NCBI GenBank assembly: GCA_973895155.1
Contig: OZ316895.1
Location: forward strand, 18,960,508 to 19,024,507
Direction of reading: 5' to 3'
Length of the DNA: 64,000 nucleotides
DNA from: Marsupella aquatica
Lineage: Eukaryota; Plantae; Marchantiophyta
Position 1 is the stretch's first letter; each line of letters opens with the position of its first letter. Both the position numbers and the translations under genes were made by a program. The notes beneath the pieces were generated by a model. That model was not told the origin of the DNA and ran no database searches. It worked only from the letters and a program-made list of their open reading frames with translations. Positions 7,690 to 64,000 of the stretch are shown one piece after another.

Positions 7690-9456
7690 TTGTCGCGCCG
7701 CTAATGTCTCTTCATGTTTGCCAGACCTGCCCGAGTGGGACTTGGAGCAGCCGTCCCGTTGCCTCCTCAGCCAGTCGGCGTCCTGCTAGAGGATCTGGAC
7801 TTGGTCCAGGAGAGACTTGTTCTCTTGTTTCACCGCGTCCATCTCCTTCGTGGCCTCTTGACATGCCTCTTCCAACTGTTGGCCGTCACTCATCAGCTGT
7901 GCCACCTGTTGGTCCTGTTTAGCAGCTTTGTGTAGAAGCCGTGCCACTTTTGCTTTCAAGGCGTCCACCTTGGCTGTATCCCTTTGGGCCCGAGCGTCGG
8001 CCTCCTCTATGTCCTTTTGCTAGATTACGGCTTGTCCTTTCAAGCCATCAATCTGGGCCCGGAGCCGTGAGATTTTGGCATCCTTTTTGGCCTAGCTTGT
8101 ATGGCCAAGGCTAACTTGGCTTTGGCGTCGGTGACCTGAGCCAAAGCAATTGTAAGTTGAGGCCAGAGAAGTTGCAGCTTGGTCTCTTGAGTTGAGGCTT
8201 CATCTAATAGTTGGGTTGCCTCCGCCCGATATCGCTCAATCTTAGTTGTGGCTTCCACTAAAGCCTGCCCTACTTTTACTGGCGCCACCAGCTCTTGGCT
8301 GAAGAAGTAAGCCACCTTGCGGACCATGAACTCCTCCATTTCTCGACTAATTTGTTGGAAGAAGTTGCCCAACAACCCATTCAAATACGTGCCCGGTGCA
8401 AAGAGTTCCAGGTTCACCAGGCTGTGCCCAGTCGGGTTAGGGCAGGGATAGACCTCTACTCGAGCAGAGGCCGAGGTTGTTACGTCCAGCCCCAGGGTAG
8501 TAAGGGTAGAGGGGGAGGGGCATCTAGTAAGGGGATCCACGTGCACAGACACAGAGGGTACCACGGCTTCCTCCAGAATTACGGCCTTGGGTTTGGGGCC
8601 AGCTTCAACCCGATCGGCTGTGACTGCATGGGCCTGGTTTTGGGCATCAGGGTTGCAATAATCACCAAGTCTGGCATAGAAGAAGGTGCCTCAATAGCTA
8701 TTTGTGGGGCCGGGGTGGACACCACTGGTGCTGGATTGCGGCTCTTGGGTTGTGGCCGCCTCTTCTGAGGTGAGAAGACCCACCTGGCCGGGGTGAGTTT
8801 GGGCTCGTTGCATCTTGGGAGGGTTTGTTGGCTGAAATTGGCGTACCACTCGATGATGATCTTGATATGGCTGGCAAGGTACGCGTCCCCCCCAAGGTAC
8901 AAGGTCTTCCTTTATCGTTCCATCTCCTCGTGGAACTTCTTGACAAAGAAAGAGGCCCACTTCCTAAGCCGGTAGTTCTTGACCTGGATCACTTGGGCGG
9001 CGGATATCTCACCCCGCGGCTTTATCATGTGGAGGGCATACCTTTGAAAATCCAGCCGCTCTGCAACCTTCGGGATGAGGCATGTCCTCATTAGGAAGCC
9101 GTTGTCCACCAAACCCTTGGCCGGGAAGCTGGATGTTTGGCACTTCGCTCCTTTACCCCTTGGGGCTCGTGATTCCACCCGGTTTGGTCCCTTGGGTAGG
9201 CTGAAGATGAGCTTTAATTAGTTGCTCTTTGTTCAGGGACATTACCCGTCCGTTGAACCGTACACCTGGGTCATGGTATGTCTTGACTGGGCGAGTGCCT
9301 GGGCTTCAGCAAAAATCTTGTTGAAGTGGTGCCGTTGTAGGTTGATGGTACCTGGAATTTGGAAGACCTCATCGGGGAGGCACAGGATGGCTTCCCCAAA
9401 GCCGATGTACTTATCTTCGTCAAAGAAGAGCTCAAAGATCTCTTTGTCCTTATAGT
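7690..9456 (-). pseudogene. Accessory ORF (plant-transposon-protein-like domain plus coiled coil) inside the LTR-like unit; 5' part at 24863-~25300
   Basis: FPAKGLVDNGFLMRTC...PRGEISAAQV aligns with FPGPSTKNGFFQNTC...PRAEIGKAQV of the 51755 ORF. The frame DFRLNFESKYYK|DKEIFELF is continuous across the MULE insertion site. Confidence 0.7.
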
Positions 9457-9956
9457 GAGGCTTTTCACGGTGACAGCAAACAGCAAACAGTAAAGCTCAT
9501 AGCAGTAAATGTCTGCACCAAAAAAATCTTCCCTAATCCGACATCTCTCGTAAAATGAGATCAAAACCTCTAAAATCCATCATTTAAAAACACATCGTAA
9601 TACTAGCGCCCAGCGCTACAGTCCTGAAACAGTCCAAAATACCCGAAACCTCATTCGAAACATCTATTTGCAAAAGTATCCCCAAAAACATATGTATACT
9701 AGCGCCCGACGCTAGTATACAAACCTCAATAATAGACTTAAAAACAGAGATCAACTTTAGGGTAAACACCCAATTGTAATACATCCCAAGTTAAGATTGT
9801 CCGCTTCATAGAGGAAAGTTTAGTCAAAAAACAATGTGGACAGTCCGTCTCACTTTATAAACACCCATCAATATTACATGTGTTCACAATAGCGCCAAGC
9901 GCTATTTTGTAAAATAGCCAATATCTATATCCCCAAAATATAGTTTTAAAGTCTGG

Positions 9957-12900
9957 CTAGCCATCAGATTCTGAATCAGTCGAATCTAGTTTTGATTCTT
10001 CTTCACTACTTTGTGATCTATCAGTAGACTCAGCTTCGTCGTCTACATACTTGCTCGGGACGATGTCATCGACATAGCGATTCTTCATAAAATTTCTATC
10101 AAAGCCCCTTTTGAGCCTCAGGCCTTTGCTTTCCCAAGTCAGCATTCTCACAGAATCTGCTTTTCGAACCGCCTTTTCTACATAAGAAGGCAAGACAAAC
10201 GGCTTCTCCGGGGTTTCTATTGCATTCCTAGCGACTTTCCTTCGTAGTTGAAAGCGCTTCCGAAGATTCCACTCAGACCTGGAAAGTTGAATCCGATATC
10301 TTTAGTCGGGTCCGGGAAAATGGTGGAATGTTGGAGACACTAACGTCACACTTAAAAAGAAAAAAAAGATAGGGAAGCTGAAGATCATTACTCAGAAGAC
10401 TCTTCACTATCCTCAGATTCAAAAGACCCAAGGTTCACCACTTTCTTGGAGGCCCCATCATCTTTGGAATGTTGCGTACCATCGCCTCCATCATTGTCCT
10501 CGTCAGAATCAAAATTAAGAACAGCACGGAGTCTGTCCTGCTTCTTACTCCCCACCTGCCGGTGCGGAGGTGTGGACGTGGAGGCCTCTTTATTCTCGAG
10601 AAGTCCAAAGAAAACTTTTGTGGCAGTGTCGAGAAACTCTTTACGATTTTCAATCCCGACTACAAACCTCCCACAATGATCTCCAGCAACAAATGTACTT
10701 CCGGCCCCAATAGTCCAATCTATGACAATATCCCCAGGGAGGGTAATTAATTCTAAAACGGACTGCATGAAACCCACAAGCAACCTTGAATTCCCGGCGA
10801 ACGCAAGCTCCAGCAGAGGATCATTTTTTGGCACGGGAAAACCAATGAGATTGGTTATTGAAGGATCCTCTGTATGTGAAAGAGGCCAAAATTTGGGATC
10901 CTTAGGGACCCTACCTTTGGACGAAACACGCCCAAAAACATTGAGAGTGAGCGTAAAAACCTGCACATCGAATAACGTTTTGTTCATAATAAACATCAGA
11001 TGCTACGTCGAGAATACGGAAATATTTCACGAAGAGGATATTCCACACTAGCGCCTGGCGCTAGCGTCGCCGTCAATCTCCAAAGGAGGACACCAAACAG
11101 AAACTTTGGAATAGCGCCAGGCGCTACTATACATACCTGCATATCCGAGCAAGGCCTGTACATTGGAGTGCCCATGACAACATTGTGTGTCGAGATACAC
11201 TGGAATTTCTGTGAATCTTGACAAGCTGCAATGACCTCGGAAACTTGGTCATAGTCGCCTCTATGCAAAATCGCTAGCAATCCATCATCTGCTAGGAAAG
11301 GATCCATTGTTCTGAAAAAGGCACTTGGAATCGTATAATCTTGAAGGTTCCATTTAGGAACCTTCCTATCCACAAGTGTTGGTTTCAACCCAGTTGGAAG
11401 ATATATGAAACCAGCATCAACTCCAAAAGCTCTTTCTTTTCCCCCTCGGACAACCCCTTTTGCTCGATCCCTAGACTTCACCAGCTCTTTCCCCCAACCT
11501 TCAATATTAGAAACCCAGTCCGGCTTTTCTCCCTTGTTAAACAGGGAATCAAAACATTCTGTAACACTCGACTCCACAAAACAATGTCAAGTACGCTTTT
11601 GTTTGAAATTCCCCACATCTCTTTGCAATCCAGTAGGCGCAACTGAATCTCGGGACAAAGATCCGAGCCTATCCTCAAGTGTTCCTCTCTTTTTCTTCTT
11701 CTTCATACTTGTTGCGTCCACTGGAACCACTGCCTTTCCACTCTCCCTAGGGGTTCCCTGATCTGGTGTATTTTCCGCACCAGTGTTAGCTTCAGAGGCC
11801 TGAGGAGTAGCGTCCTCTTTTACATCACCAGTAGCATCCGACTTCCTTCCCCCTGAAAGACGGAGAGACGATACTCAATGGAACTAGTTCTCATAATAGC
11901 GCTCGATGCTAGTATCAATTGGGGGAAAATACGTCATACAAACAAGAGCGGGAATACTTTACTGAATCCTAAGAGGCAAACTTACGTTTTTTAAGCGATC
12001 GAGTTGATTCACTGGGAGCTGCAGATTCATTCTTGGCCTTCACTCTTGGCTTTCGGCTCCGGTCAACATGCACGACGACTGTCTCGCATTTCTTTTGCAG
12101 TTCAGTTGTCAAAGCGTCCACTTCAATCGCAAGACCCTGCTTCATCTCCGATATGTACCTTGCTGGGATTTGCGACTTCTGTAACTTCATGAAAGCGTCT
12201 TTCTCCACCTCGTCGAAAGGCAGATCCCATTTGTCAGTGTCAAGATACCATGGGCAGTGGAGTCTCTCCCACTCTGACAAGGCGCAAGGTGGGAACTTTC
12301 CCTCAGCTGGGTACATCGAATACAGATCAACAAGGTGGTCACCATCTTTGATAATCACCCACTTTTGAAATGCACCAGGGTAAGCCCACAAAACCTCAGG
12401 AGATCGCAACTCCATCCACATGTAGAAACGGTAAACGTATCGCTTGGCTCGTTTCCGGTTCCGCTCAGTGTAGTCCTCCTTGTCTGCATACTTTGATGGC
12501 CACATTATGTTGAAAAATTTAGCCTTGACAAGGTCTCCAAATGATTTGAATTCTTTGATAATGGACTTCATGAGAACATCCAGGGACTCACAACCAGACT
12601 TGACAAGACGATCATCTGGCATGCGATCCAAAACCTGCTCGAGCGAGGTGAGGATCAATCCAGTAGCAATTTCCTCCACTAAATTCCAGATATGCCAGGT
12701 ATGGCACCATTGTTTTACAGGATCGTCGTTCACACTAGCTGGATGAAAGAACTGTTTCCAAATCTCCGGAGTGCAATGGGCAACGAGAAGGGTACACCTT
12801 AACTTTGGATCCAGATAAGTAACTACAGTAAACAGATGAGCACGGTCCATAGTGCAAATAACTGTATCGGGCTTTTTTTCTCTTTTGTTCTTCTCTGTGA

Positions 12901-14156
12901 TGGGAAACATTTCGGCACATGTAGCCAAGTAGTCACCAAAATCAGGGTGCAGCAATGGAGTGATCTTTGTTACTTTGATAGCCCAGTCTTTTGTCGCTTC
13001 CTTCATCATAGCTTCATGCCTCTTCTGCGTCTCCTCTTCGGACCACGGAGTCCCCTAGGCAGCTGCAAAATCCATGTCCACTTTGAACTGGTTTGTGTAA
13101 GATTTAATCTTGTTCTCACACAAAATATAGATGAGCACGTCTTGTGGCATCTTGTGTGTATACCAAGAACCCTTTCGAGTCTTCTTTCGAATGGCTTCAA
13201 ACTTAGCATAACTCGTAGCATCAATTAGGGGTTTGTAGTGCTCTAGGTCATGGGATAAAAGACGAGAGATTCTGTCGGCATCAAGAATCCAAGACGGCTC
13301 GACCACAGCTTGTCCCAACCTACGTCAAAATTTAAATGTAAATTAGCAGCGCCGGGCGCTAGTAAAACACCAAAGATAATATCACATCCAAAATCCATCT
13401 TGAACTAGTACGTCATATTAAATGAGGTTGTCCTGAGGAATGGCTTACTGGTTGACAGCGTGCATGGCAGCCTCGAGCTCCACGAGGGAACCTTTATCTC
13501 CATTGAAAACAATGCAAGTCACACGAGGGTGGTACTTAATGTTGTCCGGATGCTCTGCTGTCACAATCGACCACGAATACAAACGGTGATTTTCATCGAA
13601 GACACAAAACATCTTGTCCTTCAAAACTCTGAAATCAGGATCAGCGTCACACTCTTCCTTGAACTTGTCATTCTCGGCAACCAGATTGGGTCCCAAGAGG
13701 CTCATTAGTGCAAATCTGTGGAACCCCATCCGCATTCGTTGGTTGTATGTAAAATGGCATGCCCATGCGCAAATTGTATCCAGAAATCCGGAATGACTCC
13801 TTCAATTTGTCGATGGAGGCGCTCTGCTTCTGCAACGTCCGCACCACTTCCATATGAATCAATCGACATAGAGGAATTTGTGGAGGCTCCTTCTCCAATC
13901 CTCTGAAATCTTTCCCAAAGGACAAGACATGCTTGGAAATGTAATCGTCCATTGAAAGTCCAGCAACACCAAAATCAACTCGAGCAACTTCCTCAGTCAT
14001 GTCCATTCTCCCCCTTCTTGATCGCGTAGTCGGAAGAGTTGAGCCAATGTCTGAATGTGAATGAGACGCAACGGACCGAGTCACGCGACGAGTGTACACA
14101 GAACCTGAAAAAAAGGACTGTGAGGACTCGGAATGACCGGCATGACTATCTCCCAT
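9957..14156 (-). pseudogene. Multi-exon gene: ParB/Srx-like N-terminal domain plus beta-class N6/N4 DNA methyltransferase-like C-terminal domain
   Basis: VFDENHRLYSW (DGNHR with one G>A) at ~13585; VDAGFIYLPTG then FLADDGLLAI; TLPGDIVIDWTIGAGSTFVAGDHCGRFVVGIE (motif I-like) at ~10650-10745. In-phase GT-AG introns at 13448-13320, 11985-11853 and 11136-10961. Frameshifts and a TGA stop present; 5' and 3' ends uncertain. Confidence 0.72.
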
Positions 14157-14443
14157 CCTCGTATTACCCCACTGAGAGATGGCAATGGCGTTGAGCAGAA
14201 CGTCGGACAGTATCGTACAACTCTCCCAGAGCCCCTGATCCAGTACGGAGTAACAGACTCAGGTATAGAATGTCACGCTTGATCAGGCTGCTCCAGGAGA
14301 ATCACGTCTCTCCCACGAGCGCCAAGCCTCCTCAGAAGGTTAAGACATGGAGTCTCGAGCACATTAGAGTGTTGCTCAATGGTAACACCAACAGATCTGA
14401 ACACTTGGAAGATTACCATTGGACCAAAAACCGTCTTATGTGA

Positions 14444-14517
14444 CCAGCGATCCTCAATGTTACGCGTGACCAGCAATCCTCAAGGTTACGCGTGACTAGC
14501 AATCCTCAGTGTTACCG
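14444..14517. repeat. 26-bp tandem repeat, ~3 copies
   Basis: AGCAATCCTCAA(T/G)GTTACGCGTGAC units. Confidence 0.8.
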
Positions 14518-15297
14518 TTAAAATATGACCGTTGATCATTTTGGCCTTATTGATAGCGCCAAGTGCTAGCAAAAACAACTCCATATTACCTGATTGAAAC
14601 TACTAATTTCAATAGCGCCGAGCGCTAACAAATCTCCCACGTATATATATTTTACACAATTCAAATGGAATTCATGGATAGATGGACAAAATGGACATTA
14701 TTTGGACCATTTTATCCGTAAGCGTTATTAGCGCTCGGCGCTATCATAAATCGCATCCGAATCGATGTTACTCATCATGAGAGAGTAATACAACCTCTTA
14801 CATATCCACAAATATTTAAGAATCCATCTGGTATTAGAAGCATAAGTTTGAGCATTCCAATGCTAGCGCCAAGCGCTAATATGGAACCTGTCACGGGTAA
14901 GACCACTCCATCAAAAACTACAAGCATTACGAAGACTTTCAAAAGACATTTGGTGAAAAGATTTACTCATTCCCGTAAGGAAAAACATCGAAAAACACAA
15001 ACTGAATAATGAAAAATGCGTAAGGGAATGGCTAATAGATTCAAACTCCATTTAATGGTATCGGCTTTACTTCACAAAGTCTCAAAATATTGAGTAAAAA
15101 CATGAGAGTAACCTCCCAATAGATTCCGAGACTATCGTGTTGGCAAAAGATTGACTACCATTTCTACCATCATTGCATCAACTGGTCGTGGCTGTGAACA
15201 TCGAACTCCACCAAATGAGGTTGGTAATCTACTCAGGGTTATTGGGTTCTCCAGGATCAGACGGTCCATGCGTTAATCTCCAGTTTCAGTTGATCAG

Positions 15298-15735
15298 TTA
15301 ATCTTCCCACCAGCTTGGCTTGTACGCGTTCAAATCATCGTTGGAATCGCTAGAACCAACGCCCCAGCGAAACCCACCCCGGCTGCAAGAGGAGTCGTCG
15401 TTGGACCCTGACTCATCGTGGCTCCCTACATCATCGTCTGTATCCTTGCCTTCACTTGAAGAACGTTTTCCATGTCTAGGTGACGGGTGCGACGAAGATA
15501 AGCCCGCCTTCGACACCCGACATTTTTGCGCGACGGGTTGAACTTCTACTTTAGCCTGAGGAGCACCATCTGGTGCGGATACAACCCGGGTTTTCACAAT
15601 TACTTTCCCCTTCGCCAAGATCGGGATGTTTGAATGAGAAGGAGGCTTCGTGAGAGACTTCTCCTCAGCGCCCTCTCCATCGCTGCCGCTTCGAAACGTA
15701 ACCTGCGCCTTCCCCTTAGCTCGTGGTGGAGCCAT
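15298..15735 (-). CDS. Hypothetical low-complexity ORF in the MULE (separate gene or upstream exon of the ParB-MTase gene)
   Basis: 145-aa ATG ORF, K/S/D-rich, same orientation as the cargo gene; no recognisable domain. Confidence 0.4.
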   Translation of the reverse strand: MAPPRAKGKAQVTFRSGSDGEGAEEKSLTKPPSHSNIPILAKGKVIVKTRVVSAPDGAPQAKVEVQPVAQKCRVSKAGLSSSHPSPRHGKRSSSEGKDTDDDVGSHDESGSNDDSSCSRGGFRWGVGSSDSNDDLNAYKPSWWED

Positions 15736-16799
15736 GGAAACTTAAACAAACGACTCTGAACGATCAAGACTGAACGGAAGTTTCTTGTATAAAAATGGAC
15801 GCGGGAGCGCAAAAAATGTTTCTGAGAACAAAGAACTTCAAATGGTGAGAGGCAGACTCGCCGGCCAGGTTTTGAGGACAGAGGTGAGAACGTTCAGATT
15901 TCCATGGACGTCTCAGATGTAATGGTTTCCGATCGTGCAATTGACGTCCGAGATGCGTCGATTGTGGAAACTTTAATGCACACGTGCGTACTTGGACTGA
16001 TTCACGGATTTCCTGTCTGTTGTTAGAGGTAGAACGTATGAGCTTTGATGATAGCGCCGAGTGCTATTATTACAATCTGAGTTTTCCCTGTCCTCCTTGC
16101 CATGCGGTACTGTATTCGGTCGAGAGTCATGCTTCCATTGTCAAGTTGTTCCCCGTTCACAAAAGTAGCGCCCGACGCTATTAAACTCCCGACAATTAAG
16201 CTGGTTCAATACAGCCATTGAATAATGACAAAATTCAATTGATTTACATCGTCCAAACCATTAACGTAACTTTCTTTGTCATTATTCAATGTTCTTTTAT
16301 ACTGTCGTTATTAACCTCGTACATCAAACAAGACTTAAACCGATTGGGGAAGTGAGACATCGATTATTATCTTCCGCTGAAATGGGACGATCGATCGTAG
16401 TGAGACACAAGGGCACGCGGGATGTCGTCACGATTATCGTATCCCCTGAATCTCAGTCAAGGAGAGTTTCGGATGAATACTTGGGGTTGAGATTTGATGT
16501 TTCCAAAGAGTGTATTCTCTCTGTGTCCCTCCTCCCTAAGGATTCAAAGGCAAATACCATCTTCTATGATGTCATCGATGGACTCAGGTTTTGGATGATG
16601 TATCCGGAGAAAGTATACGAGGTCTTTGTTTTGGAAGATTCTGAAGCATCGGAAGATCTATGTCCTATTCCCGGTGGTGTTGATGTTGTCAATCTGTCTG
16701 ACACTTCGGAAGATGACGGGAAGAATTCGCCCCTTTCCTTTGATGTCCCGAAAAGGATCTCAGTGGATCCCTTGGTGGTGAAGATGGAGGTTCAAGATG

Positions 16800-19700
16800 T
16801 GTGACGCCAATGACATGGTCCTTATTTTGTAATCTGATTAAGTAGGTTGCTGTATGCAAGGAGTAGCTATTGATATTGCATAACAATTAGCAAGATGGCA
16901 AGAATAAGGGCAAGCATGGCGTTAAGAGTAGGGAAATAAAAGCTATGTCGCAGGTGGTCGGCGACCATATCTCTTTCAATATGTCACCAAATCCGGATCT
17001 GTAAAGAGCATTGGAAAGATCTGGTCAAGGCGAGTAAAATCGATATAAAACACTCGGGAAACGGAGGTGTATTAAGAAAGATACGGCCTGATTAGTGTGA
17101 CGGGTTAACTTGTGGCCGGAATTAGCGGATTCGGCTTCAGTTTCGGGTTAACCCAAGCTCGACCACGGCTTAGCTTATGTGAGCACGGCTTCAGCTTAGC
17201 TCAGGTCAGCACGGCTTCAGCTTAGCTTAGGTCAGCACGGCTTCAGCTTAGCTCAGGTAAGCACGGCTTCAGCTTAGCTTAGGTAAGCACGGCTTCAGCT
17301 TAGGCTTAACCCGAGTTCGGATTAGATTGATCCCGGGTTAGACTTAACTCGGGGTCAGGTTAGCATAGGTAAGCTCGGGTTCGGGCTCAGCTTAGGCTAG
17401 GATAGTGGATAGCGGATAGCGGGTGACGGCCTAACCCGAGACCACGGGTTAGCTCTACTCGGGTTAGATAGGATAGCTAGGTTAGCCGAACTCGGGTTAG
17501 CTATGTAACTCGGGTTAGCGCAACAGTGAGTACCCCCTCTCGGTTACGGGGGCATAACTCTCTGTGTATTTGACCAAATCGGCTATAATTGACCTCGTTG
17601 GAAAGAGGAGCTCAAGCAGCTTCCAACGCTGCTATCCACGCAGAAAATGGTTAAATAGAGAAATCGGGAGAGGAGGCGCAAGCTCGCAAAAACTATGGAG
17701 GAGGGCCGAATCCGAAGTACATAGCCAATTTGAGATAGAAATAAAGTTGCGAGTTAGGGTTCAGTAGTTAGAGATAGTGGCGGCTCTATTAGGGCTGGGA
17801 TGGGGCTCCAGCAGCGTAGCATCCACCCATTTGGGCTCAATGAGAGAGTATATAGAGCATCCCTCCGGTAGAGGCAGGGGGGGTTTTTAGTTTCAGAGTC
17901 GGACATCCGCGGGACATGCGGGGAGTCCCGACCTCTGGGAATGACAGAGTACCAAGGGGAGGGGGTAGGACTAAGCTCGCCGGGCGAGTGCGGAGCCGGG
18001 CTCCGTTGTAGTGTGCACCCTTGGCCTTGAACCTGTGCATTCCAGGGCTGTCGTGTCAACTAAGTGTACGCATATGTTCCCTTTGTAGTAAAATCCTTTC
18101 CCATCATTTTTCCTTCGTGTAAATCGAGATTGTATGCATGTGTGCGCATATGTGTGTGGGTTTCTCGTATATGGGTGGCAGCGCCGGGCCGAACGCACTA
18201 CCCGAGACGTGCACGGGGTGCAGCCTGCGGGTAAGTGGTTGCGAGCACGGGTTGAGGACCTGTATCATCGAATCCGGATCGAAGGCGGACAGCACGAAGG
18301 CTTAGAAGCCCTTAAGCCGGGGTCGATCCTGCTATCGACTAAGGTACGTTCCGGCGGCGGAACACAAACCATACCTAGGAGGTGTCCGTATTTAGCAGTA
18401 TGCGCACTTAGCGCTAGTTTACGAGAATAAGGTGCATTACGTGCTTCCCTTCCTGCCCGAACCCTCAGATTTACGAGGGATGTGCCCGTCTAAGCTGAAG
18501 TCTAAGTTAAGGCCGAAGCCTACGACGTGACATAGCCTTTGTTTTGGCTCTAGATGGAGGGGATGGAGCTATGTTGTGATGCTGGTAAGAGTTCTTATCT
18601 TGTGAGGAAGGAGTATCCTCTGTTGGTGCTGGATTTTAGAAGTGCAGGAGTATGTACAGTGAGGGGAGCAAAGCAATATGTTCACATTTGAAGCTCACTT
18701 GTGTACATTGGCATGCTGAGGAGGAGGTTCTGGCCTATCTACACGGGGAATCTCAGCTTAGAAGGAGGCAAAAGAGAAGTTAGTATTTTGTTTCCCTCTA
18801 GATCCAGGATGTTGTGTGAAGCGGGGACGCTTCACAGTTAAGTAGGGGGATATGTGACGCCAATGACATGGTCCTTATTTTGTAATCTGATTAAGTAGGT
18901 TGTTGTATGCAAGGAGTAACTATTGATATTGCATAACAATTAGCAAGATGGCAAGAATAAGGGCAATCATGGCGTTAAGAGTAGGGAAATAAAAGCTATG
19001 TCGCAGGTGGTCGGCGACCATATCTCTTTCAATATGTCACCAAATCCGGATCTGTAAAGAGCATTGGAAAGATCTGGTCAAGGCGAGTAAAATCGATATA
19101 AAACACTCGGGAAACGGAGGTGTATTAAGAAAGATACGGCCTGATTAGTGTGACGGGTTAACTTGTGGCCGGAATTAGCGGATTCGGCTTCAGTTTCGGG
19201 TTAACCCAAGCTCGACCACGGCTTAGCTTATGTGAGCACGGCTTCAGCTTAGCTCAGGTCAGCACGGCTTCAGGTTAGCTTAGGTCAGCACGGCTTCAGC
19301 TTAGCTCAGGTAAGCACGGCTTCAGCTTAGCTTAGGTAAGCACGGCTTCAGCTTAGGCTTAACCCGGGTTCGGATTAGATTGATCTCGGGTTAGACTTAA
19401 CTCGGGGTCAAGTTAGCATAGGTAAGCTCGGGTTCGGGCTCAGCTTAGGCTAGGATAGCGGATAGCGGATAGCGGGTGAGGGCCTAACCCAAGACCACGG
19501 GTTAGCTCTACTCGGGTTAGATAGGATAGCTAGGTTAGCCGAACTCGGGTTAGCTATGTAACTCGGGTTAGCGCAACAGTGAGTACCCCCTCTCGGTTAC
19601 GGGGGCATAACTCTCTGTGTATTTGACCAAATCGGCTATAATTGACCTCGTTGGAAAGAGGAGCTCAAGCCGCTTCCAACGCTGCTATCCACGCAGAAAA

Positions 19701-21232
19701 TGGTTAAATAGAGAAATCGGGAGAGGAGGCGCAAGCTCGCAAAAACTATGGAGGAGGGCCGAATCCGAAGTACATAGCCAATTCGAGATAGAAATAAAGT
19801 TGCGAGTTAGGGTTCAGTAGTTAGAGATAGTGGCGGCTCTATTAGGGCTGGGATGGGGCTCCAGCAGCGTAACATCCACCCATTTGGGCTCAATGAGAGA
19901 GTATATAGAGCATCCCTCCGGTAGAGGCAGGGGGGGGACTTCAGTTGTGTGATCTCACTTAGACTGAGTAGCGGGGAGGAGCTCTGTGCAAGCAAGGCTG
20001 GACTTGGACGCTGCGTGTTGGGGAGAGCTTGGTTGTGCTATACTCAGGGAGTAATCAGCCAAGCTTCACAGCAACGGGTTGCTAGGTTTGCGAGCTGGAT
20101 TGTGGCTCTTTCTAGCGGGCAGCACAACTGGGTTCTTTTCCCCCGATACAGAGCCTTGGTGATAGGTGATGTATTGGTGATTGTAAACTGTGGGGAGGAT
20201 TTCAATTCGATTTGTGGTGGGCACATTAGGGAGGCTGAGGTACTGATTAAGGGGCAGCAGGAGGAGCATTTACAGTTCAGTCTGGCAAGGCTACGTGACC
20301 CATGGGGAGTCCCGGCCTTTGTCTGGTGGAGAGCACTAAGGGATCTATGGCCAGAGCTGAGCTTGCAGGGCAAGCGTGAGGCCGGGCCTCATTGCAGTCT
20401 GGGGTAGATTGCCGTTAGGCCTGGTACCAGCTTTGAAGTCGAGTCAACTATGCATGCGTAACTTGACGTTCTGAATTGGAGGTGTGAGATCTGTATGTGC
20501 CCCCAAGAATGAAGTGCAGTGAAGGAGGTTGAGTTCAGGATTGAGCTTGCATGGCAAGCACGGGGCTTGCAGGGCAAGCACGTCACAATCTGGAGGAGAC
20601 AGCCTTCGGCCCTAGTGTTCGGATCAAGTGTTCTCAGTGAACTATTGTGCACATCTTTGAATCTAATTGAGTTTTCCTCTCAGGCCTCATTTCTCTCATG
20701 GATGTGTGTGTGTGTGAGGCAATCTGAGTGTATGATGGAACTAGCAGCGCCACTGAGAGGTGTACCGGGTGCATTGAAGCGGGCTGGGTGAGGACTGTCA
20801 TAGCTCTGATTGTTGAGAGTGGAATGGCAGAGTGGTGGGGCAATGGCTTAGAAGTCCCTAAGTCGGGAATCAGTCAGGAGTCACTGGTTTATGGGTACAT
20901 TCCGGCGGCGGAATAGAAACATACCTATGACAGTAAGCATATGTATAGACCTATGCGCACCGTAGCGCTAGGCCCTGTGTGTATGGGCCCGATATGAAGA
21001 CCCCTTCTCACCAGAACTATCATGAGCGCAGATCTGATCCCCAACCTCGGTTCCTTGGGATTGAGCTTGGGTGATGTGTGATAGAGTCTTGCTATGATAG
21101 TCTGGTGTTAAGGGCATAAACTGGTGTTTACCGGCATTCACAACATCCCTTCGTGATCCTCAGGTACAAGGAGATGGTTTTGGCACCCATAGTGACGTTT
21201 TTGGTGTTAAGACCCATGTCAATCGCGTGACA
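16800..21232 (+). mobile_element. Non-autonomous LTR element with two dissimilar LTRs (16800-18532 and 18853-21232)
   Basis: TSD AGATG at 16795-16799 and 21233-21237; both LTRs run TGTGACG...CGTGACA; PPT AGTAGGGGGA at 18841-18850; 320-bp internal segment. Confidence 0.9.
17160..17305. repeat. 26-bp tandem repeats in U3 (also at ~19215-19355 and ~2075-2185)
   Basis: AGCACGGCTTCAGCTTAGCT(C/T)AGGT(C/A), about 5 copies. Confidence 0.85.
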
Positions 21233-24200
21233 AGATGTCCCAATTGTATATCGGCAAAGTGCGATGGATCTATCCTAAAATCGAAGGGACATAGCGAGTT
21301 ATCTCATTTCATCAGGGAGAAGGATTTCACGCAGATAGTTCCCAGCCTCCCGAACAATTCTTGCCAATTCTGGAGAGACAAAAAGACTAGGAACAACCAA
21401 GTCTGGGCGAGATCACCAAAACTATCAGGCACCTTTCGAGTTGGAGAACTCATACCGCAAGGTGGTATTGTCTGTCACCACTGCTCTGAACCTCCGATGT
21501 GTACAACATCGTGTTCGGCCATGATGTTCTATATGTATCCTTCGGCCAAAGTGGATTCAACTCATTTGGTGTATATCGGCTGGCTGTGCACATGGGATTT
21601 CACAACCATCCCAGTCGTCGAGTGTGGCCGAGAGAGGCTGAAAAGGTTGCTAAGACTCACCTCGCAAAGGAGTTCCAGGCTAATCCACGAGCTACGCCCG
21701 TTGGGATAAAGAATGCGGCTACAGACTCTCTAACCAACGCCCTCTGTGAGGAATCCATGCAGGAAATGTCTTCGGAAGAGGAGAAGGAGATCTGGGAGTC
21801 CCTCATGGTTGTTGCTACCCCACAAAAGTTTGCTTTTGTTCTGCGAAGTGTGAGACAAGACCAGAAAGGCAAAGGTGAGCTTGAATATTTGGTGTGGATG
21901 CAAAAGTGTGTGAGACTTCCCTTTCTTCATAGGTATTTGCTTCCAGGCCAAGGATGTCGAGACGAAAGTGCTCACATCTTCAAGATGACTGAAAGGCTAA
22001 GGATCTGGGATCGACCTTCTCCAGAAAATGCAGACCGGTGGTTCATTAGAAGGGTCATGGGTGAGCTTCGACGTCATGCATAGAATTACATCGGACTGGC
22101 TAACTTTTAGTGTTCATGTATATGATCATCACTATCGGGCGCTTTGTACAATTTTCACTTGTGAATTAAAGGCTGAAGACACCAAGTCCTTAGAGAGAGC
22201 GTGGCAATTGATGATAGAAGTTGCGAGTGAAAATGGCCTGGAGAACATTCAAATTCGAGGATTCATGGCGGACAATGCCCAGGCTGGATGGAATGCGGTG
22301 CAAAATGTTTTCTTCAATGGGGTACCTGATCCTGACCGAGAGCGATCAGATGCGTTTCATTTTTATCAGTCATTTCGTCGGCATTCACGCGAAGGTGTTC
22401 CAGAAGGAAAACTCAAAGAACACAAGAAGATGTGGGATGGTCTTCGTAACACAAAAACATTTTTGGACGCATATCGTATGTCAAGAGAGATCGACGATTG
22501 GTGGAGAGCTGGAAATTGCCATCAAGGGAAGCTTCAAATGTTGCAAGGATGGCTCTCATGGTGGGTCGTCCGTTGGAGACAATGGGGAAACTTCATTAGG
22601 CTGGTAAGGATTTTCTTAGATTCATGATAGTCCGTTACCATTGATTTGTAATAGTGCCCGACGCTAATATGGAAAATGATTATTCTGACTCCAATTCCTT
22701 GTTACAGTATAGTAGCGCCAAGCGCTAGTATGAACAAGCACACTTTTGCAACTATGAACATGGCAGTCATGCAAGAGATTTGATAGTGCCAGGCGCTACT
22801 TATATATTAGAGAGTCCATATTGCATAAATACAAACTACACTTGTCGCAAATTACTGTAGTTACTAAATTTTGTTTCCGATGACAGAGGAAGAGTGTTGA
22901 GGCAGGTATGATTCCGAATTGTACTGGTTCGGAATCGGTCCATGTAGGCATGAAGGCGTGGCAAATGAAGAAGCGGGTTGGCCTCATGGAGGGGTGCAAA
23001 ACTGACCAAAACCGAGTCGTATGTCAGATAGCAGCATATACTGCATACGGTCGAGGATTACATTGAGGAAGTGGACCCACTATCTTTGAGCTAGCTTTCA
23101 GATCTGCCGACATGACAGGGTCTCCGCGTCTATTTGAAGAAGCGACCAATCTCCTTCTTTCCAACGCAGCTGAATTTGATTTGGAAAGAACTGTTCCATT
23201 GAATGGAGACGTCATAACTCGATCGGTGAAGCGAAAAGGTAATGCAAGTGGGAATGTCTCGGCACAAGACTCTCACAGGCATGATACTATCCTTGTGACT
23301 TCACCAAATACAAGGGGTTTGAAGAGAAGAAACCTCCATTCCACAGACTTCGAGAAGATGTCTTCCACACCTTCTGCTGGTGGAAGTGGCGTTGTTAATT
23401 TGTCTCAAACTGAGAGTGAATATTTTGAGGAGGTCGTCGTCCTTGAGACACCCTCATGTCGAACAACAAGATCTTCTGTTCCTCCCGTAGGACATCAAGC
23501 TGAGGCCGTGCCTGAGGAATCTCTTCTCCCAATGGAAACTGACATAGCTCCAGGTCTCTGGCAGCTCCGTCGAACTGCAAAATGCGGTGCTGGTCCAACT
23601 TGTAATGGGACCCTCGGTTGGAGAGGAAGCCGCGATGAATGTTGAAATTGAGTAAAGAAGGTTGGGTTTCCAAATCCAGAAGGAGTTGTCGCAATATTTG
23701 TAAGAGGATGTAGACTTTTTAGAGGAGAACCTCATCCGGACCAGATATGGTTTTGCCCAAACAACAAATGTCACAAAAGTCGGCCAAGAAGAGGTGTTTC
23801 AAACATTCCCAATATACCATCCGTTCTTCCCATTGCGAGAGGGACCAATCTCCAGGAGGGCGAGATCCAATTCTTGAGAGAACAAGGTCTACTTGGTACA
23901 GGAGAGGTAAGGGAAGATCAGGAGCCATCCCCGTTTGAGTTACGCATCGATGTGAATTTGTTCCAAGAGAGGATCAATTTAGCGGACCCAATTTTCAAAT
24001 GTGGCTCCAAGAATGGAAGGAAGTGCTTACAGAGAGTGAATCTAACTCAAACACATTACAAGAAGATCGAAGCATCCGAAACATAAGTAATGAGGCTCAT
24101 ATGCGAGAGAGATGTCACGAGAGGGAATGCGTGGGGGAAGTAGTATTGTATCAGAACACATGAACATGAGAGGAATGTTGCCTCTTATTGGGTGCAGATT

Positions 24201-24704
24201 TGTTGTTTCCCTTGCTGTTCATGTGAGGATTTCTATCGGAGGCACATTTATAGGAAACCTTACATGCCTTGCAAACATCTATATTGGGTATTCAGGACTG
24301 TGTTAAAGTTGAGTCTTCACGATTCGACACTATCTAGTCAACCAGTTCTGACATTGGGCGAAGTCCGTTACCTGCTTGATCGACAAAATGGAACGGACAT
24401 GTAGTCAATTTGGTGCCGTTCAACAGCTTTAAATGGCATTTGTCTTTTCTAACGGACAGAAGATGTACCCGTTTCTTATCTAGAAAAATGTGTTGTCTGT
24501 TGCTAGCGCCTGGCGCTAGCCAAAATTTGAAACAGATAGCAAATATATTGACTGTTAAATAAAGCACGTGTTCTTATAATGACCTTTATATTGCCCGTTT
24601 ATTATCATTGAATGGTGGGCCCCATTATGTTAGCATTTCAGAGAGCGCTTATATGGTTGTTATTTTTTAACATCGAGCCATTTTTTTGAACTTTGAATAA
24701 CCTA

Positions 24705-24830
24705 TAAAACTCGTACAAGTAAATAGTTTCTCGTATGAGTAAACAGATTTCCAGCTATGAGTAATTGAAATCCTCATATGAGTAAATTTTTGCTCGTACG
24801 AGCAAAAAATTTGCTCGTAACAGCAAATCT
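24705..24830. repeat. Subterminal repeats of the MULE
   Basis: About 6 copies of CTCGTA(C/T)GAG(T/C)AAA (palindromic core) just inside the right TIR. Confidence 0.75.
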
Positions 24831-25346
24831 ATTTACTATTTGTTGTCACGGTGGTTATACCCCTTATAGTACTTGCTTTCAAAGTTGAGTCTGAAATCAC
24901 AGATCCAATGGGAATGGCCTAGCAAATGGACACGACATTTGAAATGCTTCTCAATGGCATACCTCTGCGGATTGATACCAAAACCGGACAGCTGAGCTGG
25001 ACAGGATAGGGCCAATCATATGGCAAGGTGTGCTTGGTTGCTAAGGGAGATGGAGGAGCTGCTAACAAAGCTGGTGCAAGGAGTGAACTGACGATATCAG
25101 AGGCAGCGAAGGGCTTGCCTTACATACCCTTGTGGGGCGTCAACCGATCGGCCCCTCCTGCCTCTGATAGGCCAAGTCCCTCACACTTAAAGTGTACCGG
25201 CCATTCCTCAGGTCCGGGTCAAGGCTTGTCAGAGGGCCGCCTCCTGGATTATATGGATCCGAGGTAGACGGCCATAACGCGCTCGTAATCCGTTGGTGCA
25301 CCACCAGCCCGAAGCATGAATGCTCTTTATTGACTAAACTTGTCCT

Positions 25347-28651: not shown

Positions 28652-30256
28652 TGATCAGCTGTTTATGCAGAGGTCGATAGCCATGCCAAAGAAGCAGGAT
28701 GGAGTGGACAATTACCGGTGCAGAGCACCATTTCAGAGCGGGTCACTCATGACAACCCTAAAGGCCCACATCAGAATACCAACAAGGGAAAATATGTTTG
28801 CCAATGTCACTGAGAAGAAGAGGCAGATGACAAAACAGGAGCATCGGCGGTACATCAAGCGCTTGGAGTTAGAATTTGAGGACAGAGGCCGCAACCTGGG
28901 TATTCCAAGCTGAGATGAGGAGAGGGAAAGGCGAGTGTGGGAGGAGAGGCCGAGGCAGGCACCCATTTTCTCATTCTAGTAGGAAGCAACCTTTGTAGGC
29001 ATTCAAAGGGAAGCAGGTTGGAAACTCAAGCTCCAAGCCGGAAGTGTTGGATTGGAGGACTACAAAGACAAGGGCTTCGTCTATGTAGAGGAGCGGCCTG
29101 TACCAGGAGTCAGGACTTTTGGCTGATCCATGGGGACCTGGAACATCAGGTAAGCTCTAAGTCTCCCCCAACAGAGTTACCTCCTTTAGAATTTGATCGA
29201 ATGGAGGAGGCCGAGCAAGACCTATTGGAGTGGCTGAGGGATTTGGCCAAGGTGACCCAGAACAAGGAGATTGAGGGAGTTGTTGGGGGGAGAATGGCCA
29301 GAAGACATTTAGCAGCTTAGTCCAAGACAAGCCAAGTCGCTCACCAATTTTGATGATGTCCTTAGGGAAGCATGGGAGGTGAGGCCGTGATGGCAAATCA
29401 TGCCAGTTTCTCTGGGCACTCCACATATGCACCCAATTGGGCTATGAAGTATGGGGAGATGTGCAGTTGTTAGCTCTCAACATCTTTGGAGCAAAGTTGG
29501 AGATGGGACCGTTTATCCAGAAGGAGTTATTGGATAAAAATTGCTTGGAGGAAGCAAAGGAAGAAGGAAGAACTCATTGGGCGGCTTAGGAGGATGGAAG
29601 TTGGGAAAGGAGGAATGAAGGCGGTTAAGCAGGCTCAAGACAAGCTACTAGTTTAGAAGCATGACCTGAGCAACATGCAAGAGCAGCCAGACACTACCAA
29701 AGCAGATAACTAGCTTGTCAAGGGTAAACTCGCGTGCCCAAACTCAATTGCAATTAGCCGACATTTTCAAGGAGAGACAAAACCAAGAGCAAAGGATCCA
29801 AGATCTAAAGGCTGGCAATTAGGCCAACATAGCGGTCTACAATAAGGCCCTGGCAGATGCAGGGAAGGCAGAGAAGGCAGTACAAGTACAACTCAACAAT
29901 CTCCGCCAAGATTACCAGTAGAAGTGTGTTGATTATGAACCAAACCCGATGCAGCCCAATCCCTATTGAAGGCTGATATTGCAGCTTTGACGACCAACTT
30001 CCAAGCCAAACTGCAGCAGAAGGATGACATGCTTGAGCAACAATACAAGAAGATGAACCAGATGGAGTTTGATGTCGTCCATGAGCTAAATAAGGAGTTG
30101 AAGGAAACCAAGGAGGAGAAAGAGGCTTTAGAGAAGGAGTTGGAGGAGGCTCAAGAGGAGTTGGAGGAATATGTGCAGAAGGTGGAGAACTTGCAATGAT
30201 GAGCAAACAACAACACGGAGCAATTGAAAAAACTAGCCAAAGCAAGCAAGTCCTCA
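28652..30256 (+). pseudogene. Degraded accessory ORF, 3' piece (coiled coil)
   Basis: KDDMLEQQYKKMNQME...ELNKELKETKEE is homologous to KDEMLDQTYAKMNQME...ELDKELRATREE of the 53000 ORF. Confidence 0.8.
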
Positions 30257-35789: not shown

Positions 35790-37035
35790 AAGGGGTGCCT
35801 AGGACAGTTGAAGGTATGGATCAGGCAAGTGATGGACAGTTGGGGCAAAGGATCCAGACACATACCAATGAACTGCGTCTCCCTTTGCATCACCCATTGA
35901 GGATTAGACGTCATGACTCCAAGTTGTGGAATAGAGAGGTGCTTAGAGCAGGCTGGGGCATAAATGCCCGAATGAGATATCCCTGCACAGAGTGTCAAGG
36001 ATACCACTAGATGACCCTAAACCAAGTGCATTCTCATCTTCAAAGGCATGGAAGACATCCAATCCGCAGTGTGTGGAATGTGCTAGAGGAAGAGGATTCA
36101 TCAGATGAGGAATGGAGAGCAGATTTTGAAAATGTGAATACTACAAGGCACTCTACATTCTTTCATAACGTCACTGGTCATGCAAGGCAACAATGCCAAA
36201 GATGAGTATGTTCCACAAGGAGGTTCCGAGACTTCTAATGAGGACGGGGCAGATGTTCCCAGGATGGTTTCAGATATTTTTCAAGACCTGGATGCACTTT
36301 ATGACGATGCAGAGGCACAGGGCAACGCAAAACCAGACATGCATGGTGTAGGTCCTACAGACCAAGAAGAGTTTGACATTGGAGAAGGAGCTAGAGATCG
36401 ATGATGGTCAATTCTTGGGAATTGGGGCCGACTTGGAGGAAGCTACATCCCCATTGTATGGTGGTGCAAACTGCTCCAAACTAGGATTTATAGTGATGTT
36501 CCTCAATATATGTGGATGTCATTGTGTGCCCAACATATGTGTAACAGAGTTGTTGATGTTCCTACAAAGGACAATACTACCCGCTGGAAACATTGTTCCT
36601 AAGAACATGTATGAGACAAAGAAGCTGATGAGCAAACTTGGTTTGAATTATGTGTCTATCCATGCATGCCCAGATGGCCATGTACTTTTCAAAAAAGAAT
36701 ATGTTGATTGCCTATCCTGCCCTTAATGCGGAAAGCATAGATATAAGAACTTTGGGAAGTCAACTCAACTTGCTAAGGTCTTGCGGCATTTCCCTCTCAT
36801 TCCAAGATTGCAGTGCCTCTATAGGTGTCCATCCATTTCTAAGATGATGACTTGGACCTCTGATCACAAGAGTACAGATGGTTTGCAACGTCACGTTGGA
36901 GATCCAACCATTGGAAGTACATAGATGAGAAGTGGCCGGACTTTGCAGCAGAGAGCAGAAATGTGAGGTTTGGTCTAAGTCTTGACGGTGCTAATCCTTT
37001 TGGAGACAAGAACAATGTGTATTCTTGCTGGCCAG
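35790..37035 (+). pseudogene. CACTA/En-Spm transposase (Tnp2-type), 5' fragment
   Basis: IHACPDGHVLF, KVLRHFPLIPRLQ, RNVRFGLSLDGANPF...YSCWPV. Confidence 0.88.
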
Positions 37036-37640
37036 TGTCGTGCGCATACACATCGCTACACAACATACATCGCTTGTCACATACATCCAGACATAGTCAC
37101 ACTGCCACATCACAAACACAAGAGAATGGAATACAAGTGGAACTCATGTCCACACATGTCCAAAACCCACAATAATCTCCTCAACAATCGGAACAACGAT
37201 CGACGCCAACAATACGTACTCAATCCCGTCCAATCCGATCACACACATATGTCGAGCCAACGCACCTTGCACTCAAGGAATCCACACTACATAGAGAGAG
37301 CTCTCAGCCACCATAGCCACCACACAAGCTCCCATCTCCAAGGCTCAACATTGAAAGATGACCTTTCAATGCCTCACAAGAGAGAAGTACCCTCTCACAC
37401 AAACCTAACGGAACCTTATCGGCTCATATAGCACACATACCAAACATACGGATTTAGATAATTAGTACAATACACTCTAACACTACCTAGAATGGTGTGA
37501 TAGTTGTCGTGCGCATACACATCGCTACACAACATACATTGCTTGTCACATACATCCAGACATAGTCACACTGCCACATCACAAACACAAGAGAATGGAA
37601 TACAAGTGGAACTCATGTCCACACATGTCCAAAACCCACA
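37036..37640 (-). repeat. 3' LTR region: two 136-bp direct repeats (37036-37171, 37505-37640) with a 333-bp spacer
   Basis: Near-identical TG...CA units; the PPT abuts 37640. Confidence 0.75.
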
Positions 37641-48874: not shown

Positions 48875-49831
48875 AAACCCTCTGACACAGAGGCAATTGT
48901 AGTGGTGCCAGTCAAAAATCCCATAGCACGCTCTCTCTCATTAGTAGTAGGTTCCACTAACTACTGGAGAGCTGTGTCCCAGACAAGTCCAGGGCCACCT
49001 GCTCTGAATGCATATGAAGCAGATTGTAGTTGGATTGTTGCCAGTGGGCGCCCAACTGCATTGACCATTGCCAATGGAGGTCTATCAGGTTGGGTCACAC
49101 CCTATGCACGATGCCCTGGATCCAAAACATCATCCACCACTAAGGCTGGTGAGCGTGGAATGCTGTCAAATGCGCGCTTCAGCACCTCACATGGGATCAA
49201 ATTAGTCCACCACAAGCGTGGACAATGTGCACAAGAACCCACACATGCAGCATCCAATAACACAGCAGGTCCAATCCAAGACCTCACCTAGTGAACACTG
49301 GCAACAATCCAACTACAATCATCACCTAACAATGGTACATTCTCCAAAATGTATGCTGGAGACTGTGTCTGCTGTAGCTGGAGACTGTGTCTACTGTAGC
49401 TGGAGATGACGCAGCACCTGTAACATCTCCCAAAACAATGCAGAGCATGGATCATGAAGTCTATGCCCAACGCCAGCTCTAGATTGGCCCTGACATGGCC
49501 AACCAGCAAGCACCAAATCAATGGGGTCAACACGATGCAGATGATCCGCCCCCAACAATGAAATATCAGCAGGTAGTGCATGCTAATAACCACGAACAGC
49601 ATCCACTGGCAGCAACTGTGGATATCTATCCACCAACATAGCCACATGTTGCAATGAGACCCTCCGTGCTATCTCATCTGTCTCCACATACAAATAACGA
49701 TGCACAAGAATTCCTACCTGAAGAACAACAGCCAATCCAGTGCTAATCCCACCAAAAAGATCCAACAAACAAATACCCTCCGGTGGATACTGCCAAGCAA
49801 TAGGAGTGGTATCCAATGGTGAAAGAGTCAC
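48875..49831 (-). pseudogene. C5 cytosine DNA methyltransferase domain (DNMT3-like) within gypsy pol
   Basis: Motif I LLDLFGGI, IV LAGWPCQGQSRAG, VI YILENV, VIII AHCPRLWWTNL, IX ERERAMGF; motif X LGQTMDL lies at ~42860-42885 across the nested insertion. Confidence 0.88.
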
Positions 49832-56699: not shown

Positions 56700-56794
56700 A
56701 CATACACTACAATAAACACAGCTCGGGACACGTTCATGATTAAGAGCTCACAAATGATTCCCTAAAAAAAGAAAGAGAAACATGATTCAACAAT

Positions 56795-59119: not shown

Positions 59120-59720
59120 GAGGTATAGCGACCGAGACAGCAAACAGGCAAACAACAAATACTTTTCCTGTTTGCCTTATGCTGTTACCAGGAAAAAACA
59201 TCTTGTACCAGGGGAAAGAACACACAATCAGGAGTTTAGAATTGTTTAAGTTGGAGTTAGGCCATTGCGGTGAGGGAGGATACCATGTCATGAATCGCTG
59301 AACCACATAATAATTGAACCTCATATCCCAACACAAACAAGGGGGAGCATACATAAAAATGTCAAGGAATGCGCACAAAAATGGTAGGTCCCACCACAAT
59401 CGGCAACAAAATATATAAAAATAATACAAAATGAATGCATCCCAAAACTTTATGGTATTATATGGTCCAAAATAAATGCGAACAACGTCTTGACTAGCGC
59501 CTGGCGCTATCTTATCGGTATTTCAGGAAACAAATAGTTGGCGTTGAGAACATCAAGCACAACACAATGATATTTAACGGTGTAGCCTAAACGACAAAAT
59601 TATCAGCGCCTGGCGCTAACAAAACATGACGCGACATAAATAACACTTTTCCGTTGACATACGACAAAATCAATATAACCGTTTGGACCAATAATACAAC
59701 CTACATCATCATGATTCATG

Positions 59721-63814: not shown

Positions 63815-64000
63815 TGTAAGATCATCCAACCCAAAAACACTCAGTTCACAATAATGAATGACGTCTTCGAATGCACACAATGGTATTCATAGTCAATAAT
63901 CCGTTTGTTAGAGCCGTTAGAATACGACAGAATCACTACCGGTCGAAACCACATCTGACACAATAAATGTTTTTTGTCGTTATGTCAACGACATTTACAC

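Follow-up and report, generated by a model that had tools for sequence, protein, structure and literature searches.

A decayed Mutator-like transposon of the liverwort Marsupella aquatica with a predicted ParB-like/methyltransferase-like cargo gene and a palindrome confined to its non-coding DNA

The 64,000-nucleotide stretch of the Marsupella aquatica genome analyzed here (hereafter the window; contig OZ316895.1 of assembly GCA_973895155.1, positions 18,960,508 to 19,024,507) contains, at positions 9457-24861, a decayed copy of a two-gene transposon family that is filed as a divergent clade of Mutator-like elements (MULEs) on the basis of a 9-bp target site duplication (TSD) and the motif order of the transposase. 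In this element, the transposase gene is accompanied by a divergently transcribed, spliced cargo gene with predicted ParB-like and amino-methyltransferase domains and by multiple copies of a 14-bp palindrome, TAGCGCC-N-GGCGCTA, that is confined to the non-coding parts of the element family. We give roughly even chances to the possibility that the cargo protein binds the palindromes of its own element as an anti-silencer analogous to VANC, with a methyltransferase domain that is probably non-catalytic.

The palindrome, which is surrounded by weaker WTRN flanks, is present in exactly 17 copies in the element, the number given in the original prediction, and in 4 copies in a diverged second element that begins at 59120, for a total of 21 in the window. 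Searches were run with a looser, 12-letter pattern and with a stricter one, the 14-letter consensus with up to 2 mismatches. The stricter pattern detects 16 sites in the first element and 4 in the second but not a single one in the remaining 48,147 bp of the window, in agreement with the earlier claim that the palindrome is specific to this family rather than equally common outside it. The 12-letter pattern yields two further matches with 2 mismatches (380 and 20963), both within copies of a long terminal repeat (LTR)-derived sequence; in 10 simulations with this pattern, the chance expectation per 64 kb was 0.0 matches at 1 mismatch and 1.0 at 2 mismatches. All 21 palindromes are non-coding, while modelled exons take up 70% of the two elements. 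Sites occur in three of the four cargo introns (the fourth has none), in the transposase intron, between the divergent start codons of the two genes and in both subterminal regions, a VANC-like placement of element-specific motifs in the non-coding DNA of a MULE.

Aligned with each other, the homologous transposase introns of the first and second elements score 28, compared to a mean of 22.6 and a maximum of 36 for 200 shuffles, and these same unalignable introns contain 3 (first element) and 2 (second element) palindromes. Among the deviations from the consensus, 19 of 21 are C>T or G>A changes and, at position 11906, most other copies are nearer to the consensus than the window copy, which is consistent with a perfect ancestral site that decayed after the death of the element. 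That a 14-bp palindrome has stayed fixed while the non-coding DNA around it diverged leads us to infer a dimeric protein reader and, given that the conserved second gene encodes a predicted ParB-like domain, the cargo protein is the most economical candidate for this role. The features of the two elements are as follows (window coordinates; strand, where assigned, in parentheses).

9448-9456: left TSD, CCTTATAGT (9 bp)
9457-9510 (+): left terminus, with a short imperfect terminal inverted repeat (TIR) and A(G/A)(C/T)AAA subterminal repeats, likely transposase sites
9604-9904: three palindromes (9604, 9700, 9890; spacing 96 and 190) between the left end and the cargo stop codon
9957-10278 (-): last cargo exon, with a basic/acidic tail and the stop codon
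10392-10960 (-): cargo exon, predicted methyltransferase motif I half (DWTIGAGST, VGIE), with the Pfam N6_N4_Mtase match
10961-11136 (-): cargo intron with palindromes at 11049 and 11112
11137-11852 (-): cargo exon, linker and predicted methyltransferase motif IV half (YLPTG here); premature TGA at 11589
11853-11985 (-): cargo intron with a palindrome at 11897
11986-13319 (-): cargo exon, all-helical domain of about 400 amino acids (aa), without a fold match; premature TAG at 13057
13320-13448 (-): cargo intron with a palindrome at 13347
13449-14104 (-): cargo exon, ParB/Srx-like domain; frameshift near 13690; acceptor at 14104, in-frame ATG at 14006
14554-14878: four palindromes (14554, 14613, 14729, 14864), upstream of the cargo gene or in its candidate first intron
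15298-15735 (-): 145-codon low-complexity open reading frame (ORF) from ATG 15735, candidate first cargo exon
16052-16180: two palindromes (16052, 16166) within the 646-bp gap between the divergent start codons
16382-16799 (+): N-terminal part of the transposase gene, cut by the LTR-derived insert
16800-21232: nested LTR-derived insert (TG...CA, TSD AGATG of 5 bp; 4,433 bp), foreign to the element
21238-22603 (+): transposase, partly deleted WRKY/GCM1-like zinc region followed by the FDVM, MADNA and FHF motifs; frameshifted
22604-22886 (+): transposase intron with palindromes at 22652, 22713 and 22784
22887-24395 (+): last transposase exon, with the GSESVH glutamate and the C-terminal SWIM-type CxC...CxH; several stops
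24504-24518: one palindrome, downstream of the transposase gene
24700-24861 (-): right terminus, with CTCGTA(C/T)GAG(C/T)AAA subterminal repeats and an imperfect TIR
24862-24870: right TSD, CCTTATAGT
59120-64000 (-): diverged second element with the same type of end and palindromes at 59495, 59604, 61294 and 61407

The element is flanked on both sides by the direct repeat CCTTATAGT, within the 9-11 bp range of MULE TSDs, and is bounded by short, imperfect inverted repeats of about 35 bp that start with G and are of the same type as the end at 59120. The TSD- and TIR-bounded unit was thus delineated correctly in the original prediction except for the right end, which is at 24861 rather than 24862, the first letter of the right-hand CCTTATAGT. 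Compared with the other two ends, which start with GAGG, this end is two letters short, so that a 7-bp TSD is also a possible reading. Without the nested LTR-derived insert, which splits the transposase gene, the element is about 10.97 kb long, in line with the earlier estimate of about 11 kb. Both genes are broken, indicating that this is a dead copy. The short terminal repeats differ from the palindrome.

The cargo gene consists of five exons and four GT-AG introns, all phase-compatible, as expected from the earlier reading of a divergent spliced gene, and encodes a protein of about 1,170 aa from the ATG at 14006 on the minus strand. The ORF at 15298-15735 may represent an initial exon of the cargo gene; a search for a consensus donor in a compatible phase found none. 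The window copy has one frameshift, two premature stops and altered motifs. The predicted domain order is a ParB-like domain with the DGNHR motif, a helical domain of 400 aa and a beta-class amino-methyltransferase domain.

Judged by the Pfam match, the motif order and, weakly, the fold, the C-terminal domain is a beta-class amino-methyltransferase domain. The N6_N4_Mtase family (PF01555) matches the cargo with an E-value of 1.9e-6 (28.5 bits, with a cut-off of 26.7) and is the sole match of a meaningful level among 71 members of the cargo family; DNA methyltransferases were also matched in PHROGs and NCBIfam. Motif IV precedes motif I, as in the beta class, and the glycine loop of motif I, implicated in binding of S-adenosylmethionine (SAM), and the acidic residue after strand II are retained at about 25-38% overall identity. 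The best Foldseek row for a poor structural model of this domain (predicted local distance difference test, pLDDT, of 42.8) is the beta-class DNA methyltransferase CcrM (E 0.0068), and methyltransferases fill the fold lists of a second cargo model (best Z 8.4, root-mean-square deviation 2.5, 81 aligned residues). Sequence searches of the PDB with the cargo and methyltransferase profiles gave low-complexity matches or none. A tblastn search of phages turned up nothing beyond weak rows for methyltransferases, with E-values of 0.2 or worse, and a match to gp32 that proved spurious.

The catalytic signature (D/N/S)PP(Y/F/W) is missing in the cargo. Motif IV reads D-L/M-P-T/S/I in 7 of the 8 readable homologs, H-L-P-S in the remaining one and Y-L-P-T in the window copy, and the aromatic residue is present in none of the eight. 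In N4CMT, this residue has been modelled to stack on the target base, according to the available text (PMC10406627), and a change of SPPY to APPA abolishes addition of N4-methylcytosine (4mC), albeit as a double change that, as far as the accessible part of the report goes, provides no clean test of the tyrosine (PMC8885841). Because the motif IV aromatic residue is lost in every readable homolog, the cargo domain probably transfers no methyl group, with the SAM pocket retained; accordingly, the active self-methylation that was originally envisaged is disfavored.

Support for a ParB-like N-terminal domain, which is weak, comes from several similarities. The GxxR nucleotide-binding motif of the ParB/Srx type is recognizable as DGNHR in 13 of 15 readable homologs and as DENHR in the window copy, and the structural model displays the ParB-like order of strands and helices, with a 45-aa insert. 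By language-model features, this domain has neighbors in DUF3723 clusters (0.96) and in a ParB_N cluster (0.92); PF12520 is assigned to 31-47% of the members of the nearest DUF3723 clusters. An HHalign comparison with divergent ParB-like domains produced a full-length but weak alignment (E 0.013, probability 3.4%, 98 columns) that scored above all 60 controls. The middle 400 residues of the cargo form confidently predicted helices (pLDDT above 90) and had no match among the fold-search rows listed, the methyltransferase half filling the lists.

Judged from its 131 homologs, colinear exons and the retained DGNHR motif, the cargo is old and conserved. These homologs were retrieved by a profile search; among 20 homolog clusters looked up, all named ones come from liverworts, namely Riccia sorocarpa (8) and Calypogeia fissa (3), and the rest are nameless. 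The exons of the window cargo are colinear with R1sor_027256 of Riccia sorocarpa (1,207 aa), with 24-38% identity. We also compared the window with contigs from three sequencing runs (1,274-1,513 contigs each, all 30 bins covered). Their identities span from over 99% to under 90%, indicative of a family of many diverged copies; the summed contig depth gives no copy number, and the best-matching run may stem from the same sample as the window. In the three runs, all other copies differ at 13593 in the direction of DGNHR, and other copies have extra letters at the site of the frameshift. Cargo exon 2 had no match in viral contigs, in longer proteins, in the atlas or, by protein, in metagenome contigs. 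Among the datasets listed with matches, none was an RNA dataset, which says nothing about expression either way.

The zinc-ligand patterns C-x4-C...CxxC...HxH and CxC...CxH occur in the expected order around the acidic motifs in the window transposase and its homologs. FDVM, MADNA and FH are conserved in all 6 alignment rows that cover them, and GSESVH is found in both elements; we take these as candidate catalytic motifs of a MULE-type DDE transposase. The intron position is common to the first and second elements and four Logan homologs. The motif order fits the WRKY-GCM1 zinc domain, catalytic core and SWIM arrangement described for MULEs (available text of PMC1702500). Thus, the earlier assignment to a GCM-MULE-SWIM transposase holds at the level of motif order and zinc patterns, on which the labels rest; at the profile level, no MULE, SWIM or GCM model of Pfam matched, and a PDB sequence search with the transposase profile gave low-complexity matches or none. 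The transposase of the second element is, depending on the part, 28-72% identical to that of the first and contains the same intron, so that the relative noted previously at 59120 is confirmed in its TIR type, intron position and palindrome (4 copies); the window edge cuts this element off ahead of the region where a cargo gene could be visible.

Outside the window, we scanned Joint Genome Institute (JGI) metagenomes for two palindromes located 35-65 bp apart, which returned 31 loci. One of these, contig L026, was found by the palindrome pair alone and encodes the SWIM end of the same transposase, with 40% identity (E 1.3e-7). Downstream of this coding sequence lie 3 perfect palindromes inside a 167-bp duplication. 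The pair pattern was found in 0 viral contigs, and a stricter pair pattern detected 2 loci in a single prokaryotic genome, both unrelated repeats. The single extended palindrome in one viral contig proved to be a chance match inside a coding frame. At 1367-1621 of L021, a metagenome contig of eukaryotic appearance, the 12-letter word recurs in eight near-copies whose spacers differ; the contig matches neither gene.

If the cargo protein is the VANC-like reader of the palindromes, a cargo dimer would read the two 7-bp half-sites, and the element would be covered by protein loaded at some 17 sites, including the pair that separates the divergent start codons; such binding would keep the promoter, introns and ends free of host silencing. 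The methyltransferase domain could then bind bases or act as a block at a site that is rich in CG and CNG, without methyl transfer, and the transposase would use the separate short terminal repeats. In this manner, the job of VANC would be done with prokaryote-derived parts. Several observations weigh against this scheme. The palindromes also flank and interrupt the transposase gene, so that the reader could be the transposase or a host factor; they cluster into about nine groups, and hence the 21 sites are not independent observations; and the palindrome itself holds a stop codon in one frame. Moreover, 30 of the 31 metagenome pair loci are unrelated repeats with no match to either gene, so that the word alone is no family marker. 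The window copy is the only case in which the two genes were observed on the same molecule, and among the contigs listed from the three runs, none spans both. With regard to the protein, HHalign comparison with 13 canonical ParB proteins was no better than with shuffles, no ParB match was obtained in Pfam, PHROGs or NCBIfam, no ParB row appeared in three fold searches, the lists of which the methyltransferase half dominated, and no helix-turn-helix (HTH) or other DNA-reading module was identified in the cargo. Finally, the motif IV sample is mostly Riccia, essentially one genus plus the window copy. Of the original assignment of the cargo, the methyltransferase half is borne out by profile (PF01555) and weakly by fold (CcrM, with a poor model), and the ParB-like half by the DGNHR motif, with weak profile support.

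A more elaborate proposal, which we regard as doubtful, is that a ParB-derived nucleotide-switch clamp loads at the parS-like palindromes and spreads, and that the methyltransferase-derived domain blocks or rewrites host cytosine methylation. The cytidine triphosphate (CTP)-dependent ParB/parS clamp invoked originally fares poorly, GxxR alone being recognizable, with weak profile support and no HTH found. An active though atypical amino-methyltransferase, depositing 4mC or N6-methyladenine (6mA) at or near the palindromes as a self-mark, is an unlikely reading of the cargo. The retained motif I loop and acidic residue, the first Asp and Pro of motif IV, both present in 7 of 8 homologs, and the similarity to CcrM would suit such an enzyme, and a liverwort uses a bacterial-type 4mC enzyme, according to the accessible portion of the respective report (10.1101/2021.02.12.428880); however, none of the eight homologs has the aromatic residue that, in the N4CMT model, stacks on the target base, and the SPPY to APPA double change argues in the same direction.

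Also unlikely, and placed after the active enzyme, is the possibility that the palindromes are transposase sites, involved in synapsis, autoregulation or self-activation, and that the cargo has another job. All three readable palindrome-bearing DNAs (the two elements and L026) carry transposase sequence and only one shows the cargo, and sequence-specific activation by a Mutator transposase has been reported in a 2026 preprint (available text of 10.64898/2026.08.24.746577). Nevertheless, the element ends bear a different repeat, 11 of the 17 palindromes lie within or beside the cargo gene and, in a cargo homolog with 33-36% identity, an intron read-through leads into LAPGAS, a translation of the palindrome, although this link is weak (3 matches versus 0.9 expected, two of them from one cluster). 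We consider it quite improbable that the element captured the palindrome as a binding site of a host transcription or chromatin factor, to be expressed in some cell type: the non-coding placement and conservation suit any protein-read site, but the palindrome is absent from the 48 kb of other repeats in the window, and plant factors tend to read sites shorter than a perfect palindrome of 14 bp. Least probable of all appears the possibility that the palindromes are RNA or single-strand hairpins, functional in splicing or stability, or neutral relics of tandem duplication. The flanks of the sites are slightly more self-complementary than random pairs (59 versus 48.7, p 0.02), and L026 contains a duplicated two-site unit, yet it is the primary sequence, beyond mere pairing, that is fixed across unalignable introns, and one cargo intron lacks the site. 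A tandem-unit origin of the window sites found no support either: neighboring sites are no closer in their flanks than distant ones (-15.5 versus -15.2).

Although the original prediction knew of no description of this combination, ParB-like and methyltransferase cargo on transposons, with the same self-binding hypothesis, was reported in 2025 for brown and red algae. In the available text of PMC12477816, the Sola1-1_Ec32 element of Ectocarpus encodes a 1,104-aa protein with ParB-like and N4/N6 methyltransferase domains opposite the transposase, and self-binding and self-modification are proposed for it. The resemblance to the Marsupella element, which we draw by description rather than by sequence, lies in a single gene of about 1,100-1,200 aa that combines the two kinds of domains on the strand opposite to the transposase, whereas the Ectocarpus element has a Sola transposase and a 4-bp TSD, comes from a brown alga and, in that text, is given no target motif and no comment on the catalytic motif. 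Red-algal Plavaka and Mutator elements carry ParB-like and PF01555 genes with adjacent inverted-repeat arrays, for which self-binding was likewise proposed (accessible part of 10.1101/2025.02.11.637652). These PAG2/PAG3 genes share with the liverwort element a transposon-borne ParB-like protein, a PF01555 methylase and inverted repeats as the proposed sites, but in red algae ParB (with a 2-oxoglutarate oxygenase) and the methylase (with SET) are separate genes, and the repeats are tandem arrays beside PAG3, in contrast to the dispersed intron sites of the Marsupella element. By the same description, the liverwort cargo belongs beside the algal accessory genes, being ParB-like and PF01555-containing, on a DNA transposon and opposite the transposase. 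No land-plant case was found in literature searches, although subscription papers or supplements may contain one. New here are the setting, a Mutator element of a land plant, the loss of the catalytic aromatic residue throughout the family and the defined candidate site.

The motifs bound by VANC21 lie in introns, between genes and in terminal non-coding DNA (available text of PMC5735166) and, as in the liverwort element, the VANDAL setting includes a Mutator-like element, an accessory gene and short motifs in non-coding DNA that spread by duplication. According to the same source, the VANC motifs are 8-9 bp long, non-palindromic and fast-changing, unlike the 14-bp palindrome common to diverged elements; no common domain was detected between VANC and the cargo, and the function of VANC is proven whereas that of the cargo is predicted. 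ParB and parS are brought to mind by the GxxR-type N-terminal domain and the palindromic site, but the cargo, in which no HTH was found, has the 45-aa insert and no ParA and is a spliced eukaryotic gene. Use of a ParB-family protein against silencing is precedented by VirB of Shigella (accessible text of PMC10245682). The DUF3723 proteins, the nearest named clusters to the N-terminal domain by language-model features, are conserved cargo of the large fungal Starship elements (available part of 10.1101/2021.12.13.472469); these are tyrosine-recombinase elements, and the likeness comes from such features, not from alignment.

The 2025 algal papers propose that ParB/methylase cargo lets transposons bind and modify themselves and, in their available parts, present VANDAL/VANC as the only proven self-modification and give no target sequence (PMC12477816; 10.1101/2025.02.11.637652). 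The liverwort family supplies a sharp candidate site, TAGCGCC-N-GGCGCTA with WTRN flanks; R1sor_027256 is an apparently intact natural homolog from a sequenced liverwort and Marchantia is a related genetic model, so that the self-binding hypothesis is directly testable. Should the cargo protein turn out to bind the palindromes as an anti-silencer, this cargo class would extend to land plants, a prokaryotic partition-type protein would have been reused against eukaryotic silencing, and a sequence-specific epigenome tool would become available. Were the clamp proposal correct as well, plants would have a second known anti-silencing system, one with no relation to VANC, and the widespread ParB/DUF3723-like class of transposon cargo would gain its first member for which a DNA site is defined.

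The rest of the window is a graveyard of plant retrotransposons and of CACTA and Harbinger fragments. Within the LTR-derived insert at 16800-21232, 1,088 bp are duplicated at 98.7% identity, and the window start (123-2854) contains another copy of the insert in the opposite orientation (87-98%); these identities suggest a younger family. Both flanks of the element (9000-9456 and 24862-25200, minus strand) resemble one coding sequence of another repeat, interrupted by the element. Retrotransposons that carry methyltransferases exist, and at 48900-49800 (-) a decayed C5-cytosine methyltransferase-like gene lies beside Gypsy-type pol fragments, with LDLFGG, GWPCQG and LENV discernible by eye across stops; Pfam searches with two ORF pieces of this gene gave no match. 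A 716-codon open Gypsy-type RNase H/integrase frame (46044-48194, -) is flanked by direct repeats, nearly identical to each other, near 44.8 kb and 48.2 kb. At 50862-54529 (+) lie long ORFs without family assignment (332, 415 and 525 aa), with a diverged second copy at 29473-30238 and only a weak coiled-coil Pfam row. The CACTA/EnSpm fragments (Transposase_21, DUF4218) are at 36352-37175 and 57960-59051 (+), with the second element ending directly after the latter, and a Harbinger/PIF-type transposase fragment is found at 55605-56747 (-; DDE_Tnp_4, E 1.9e-23).

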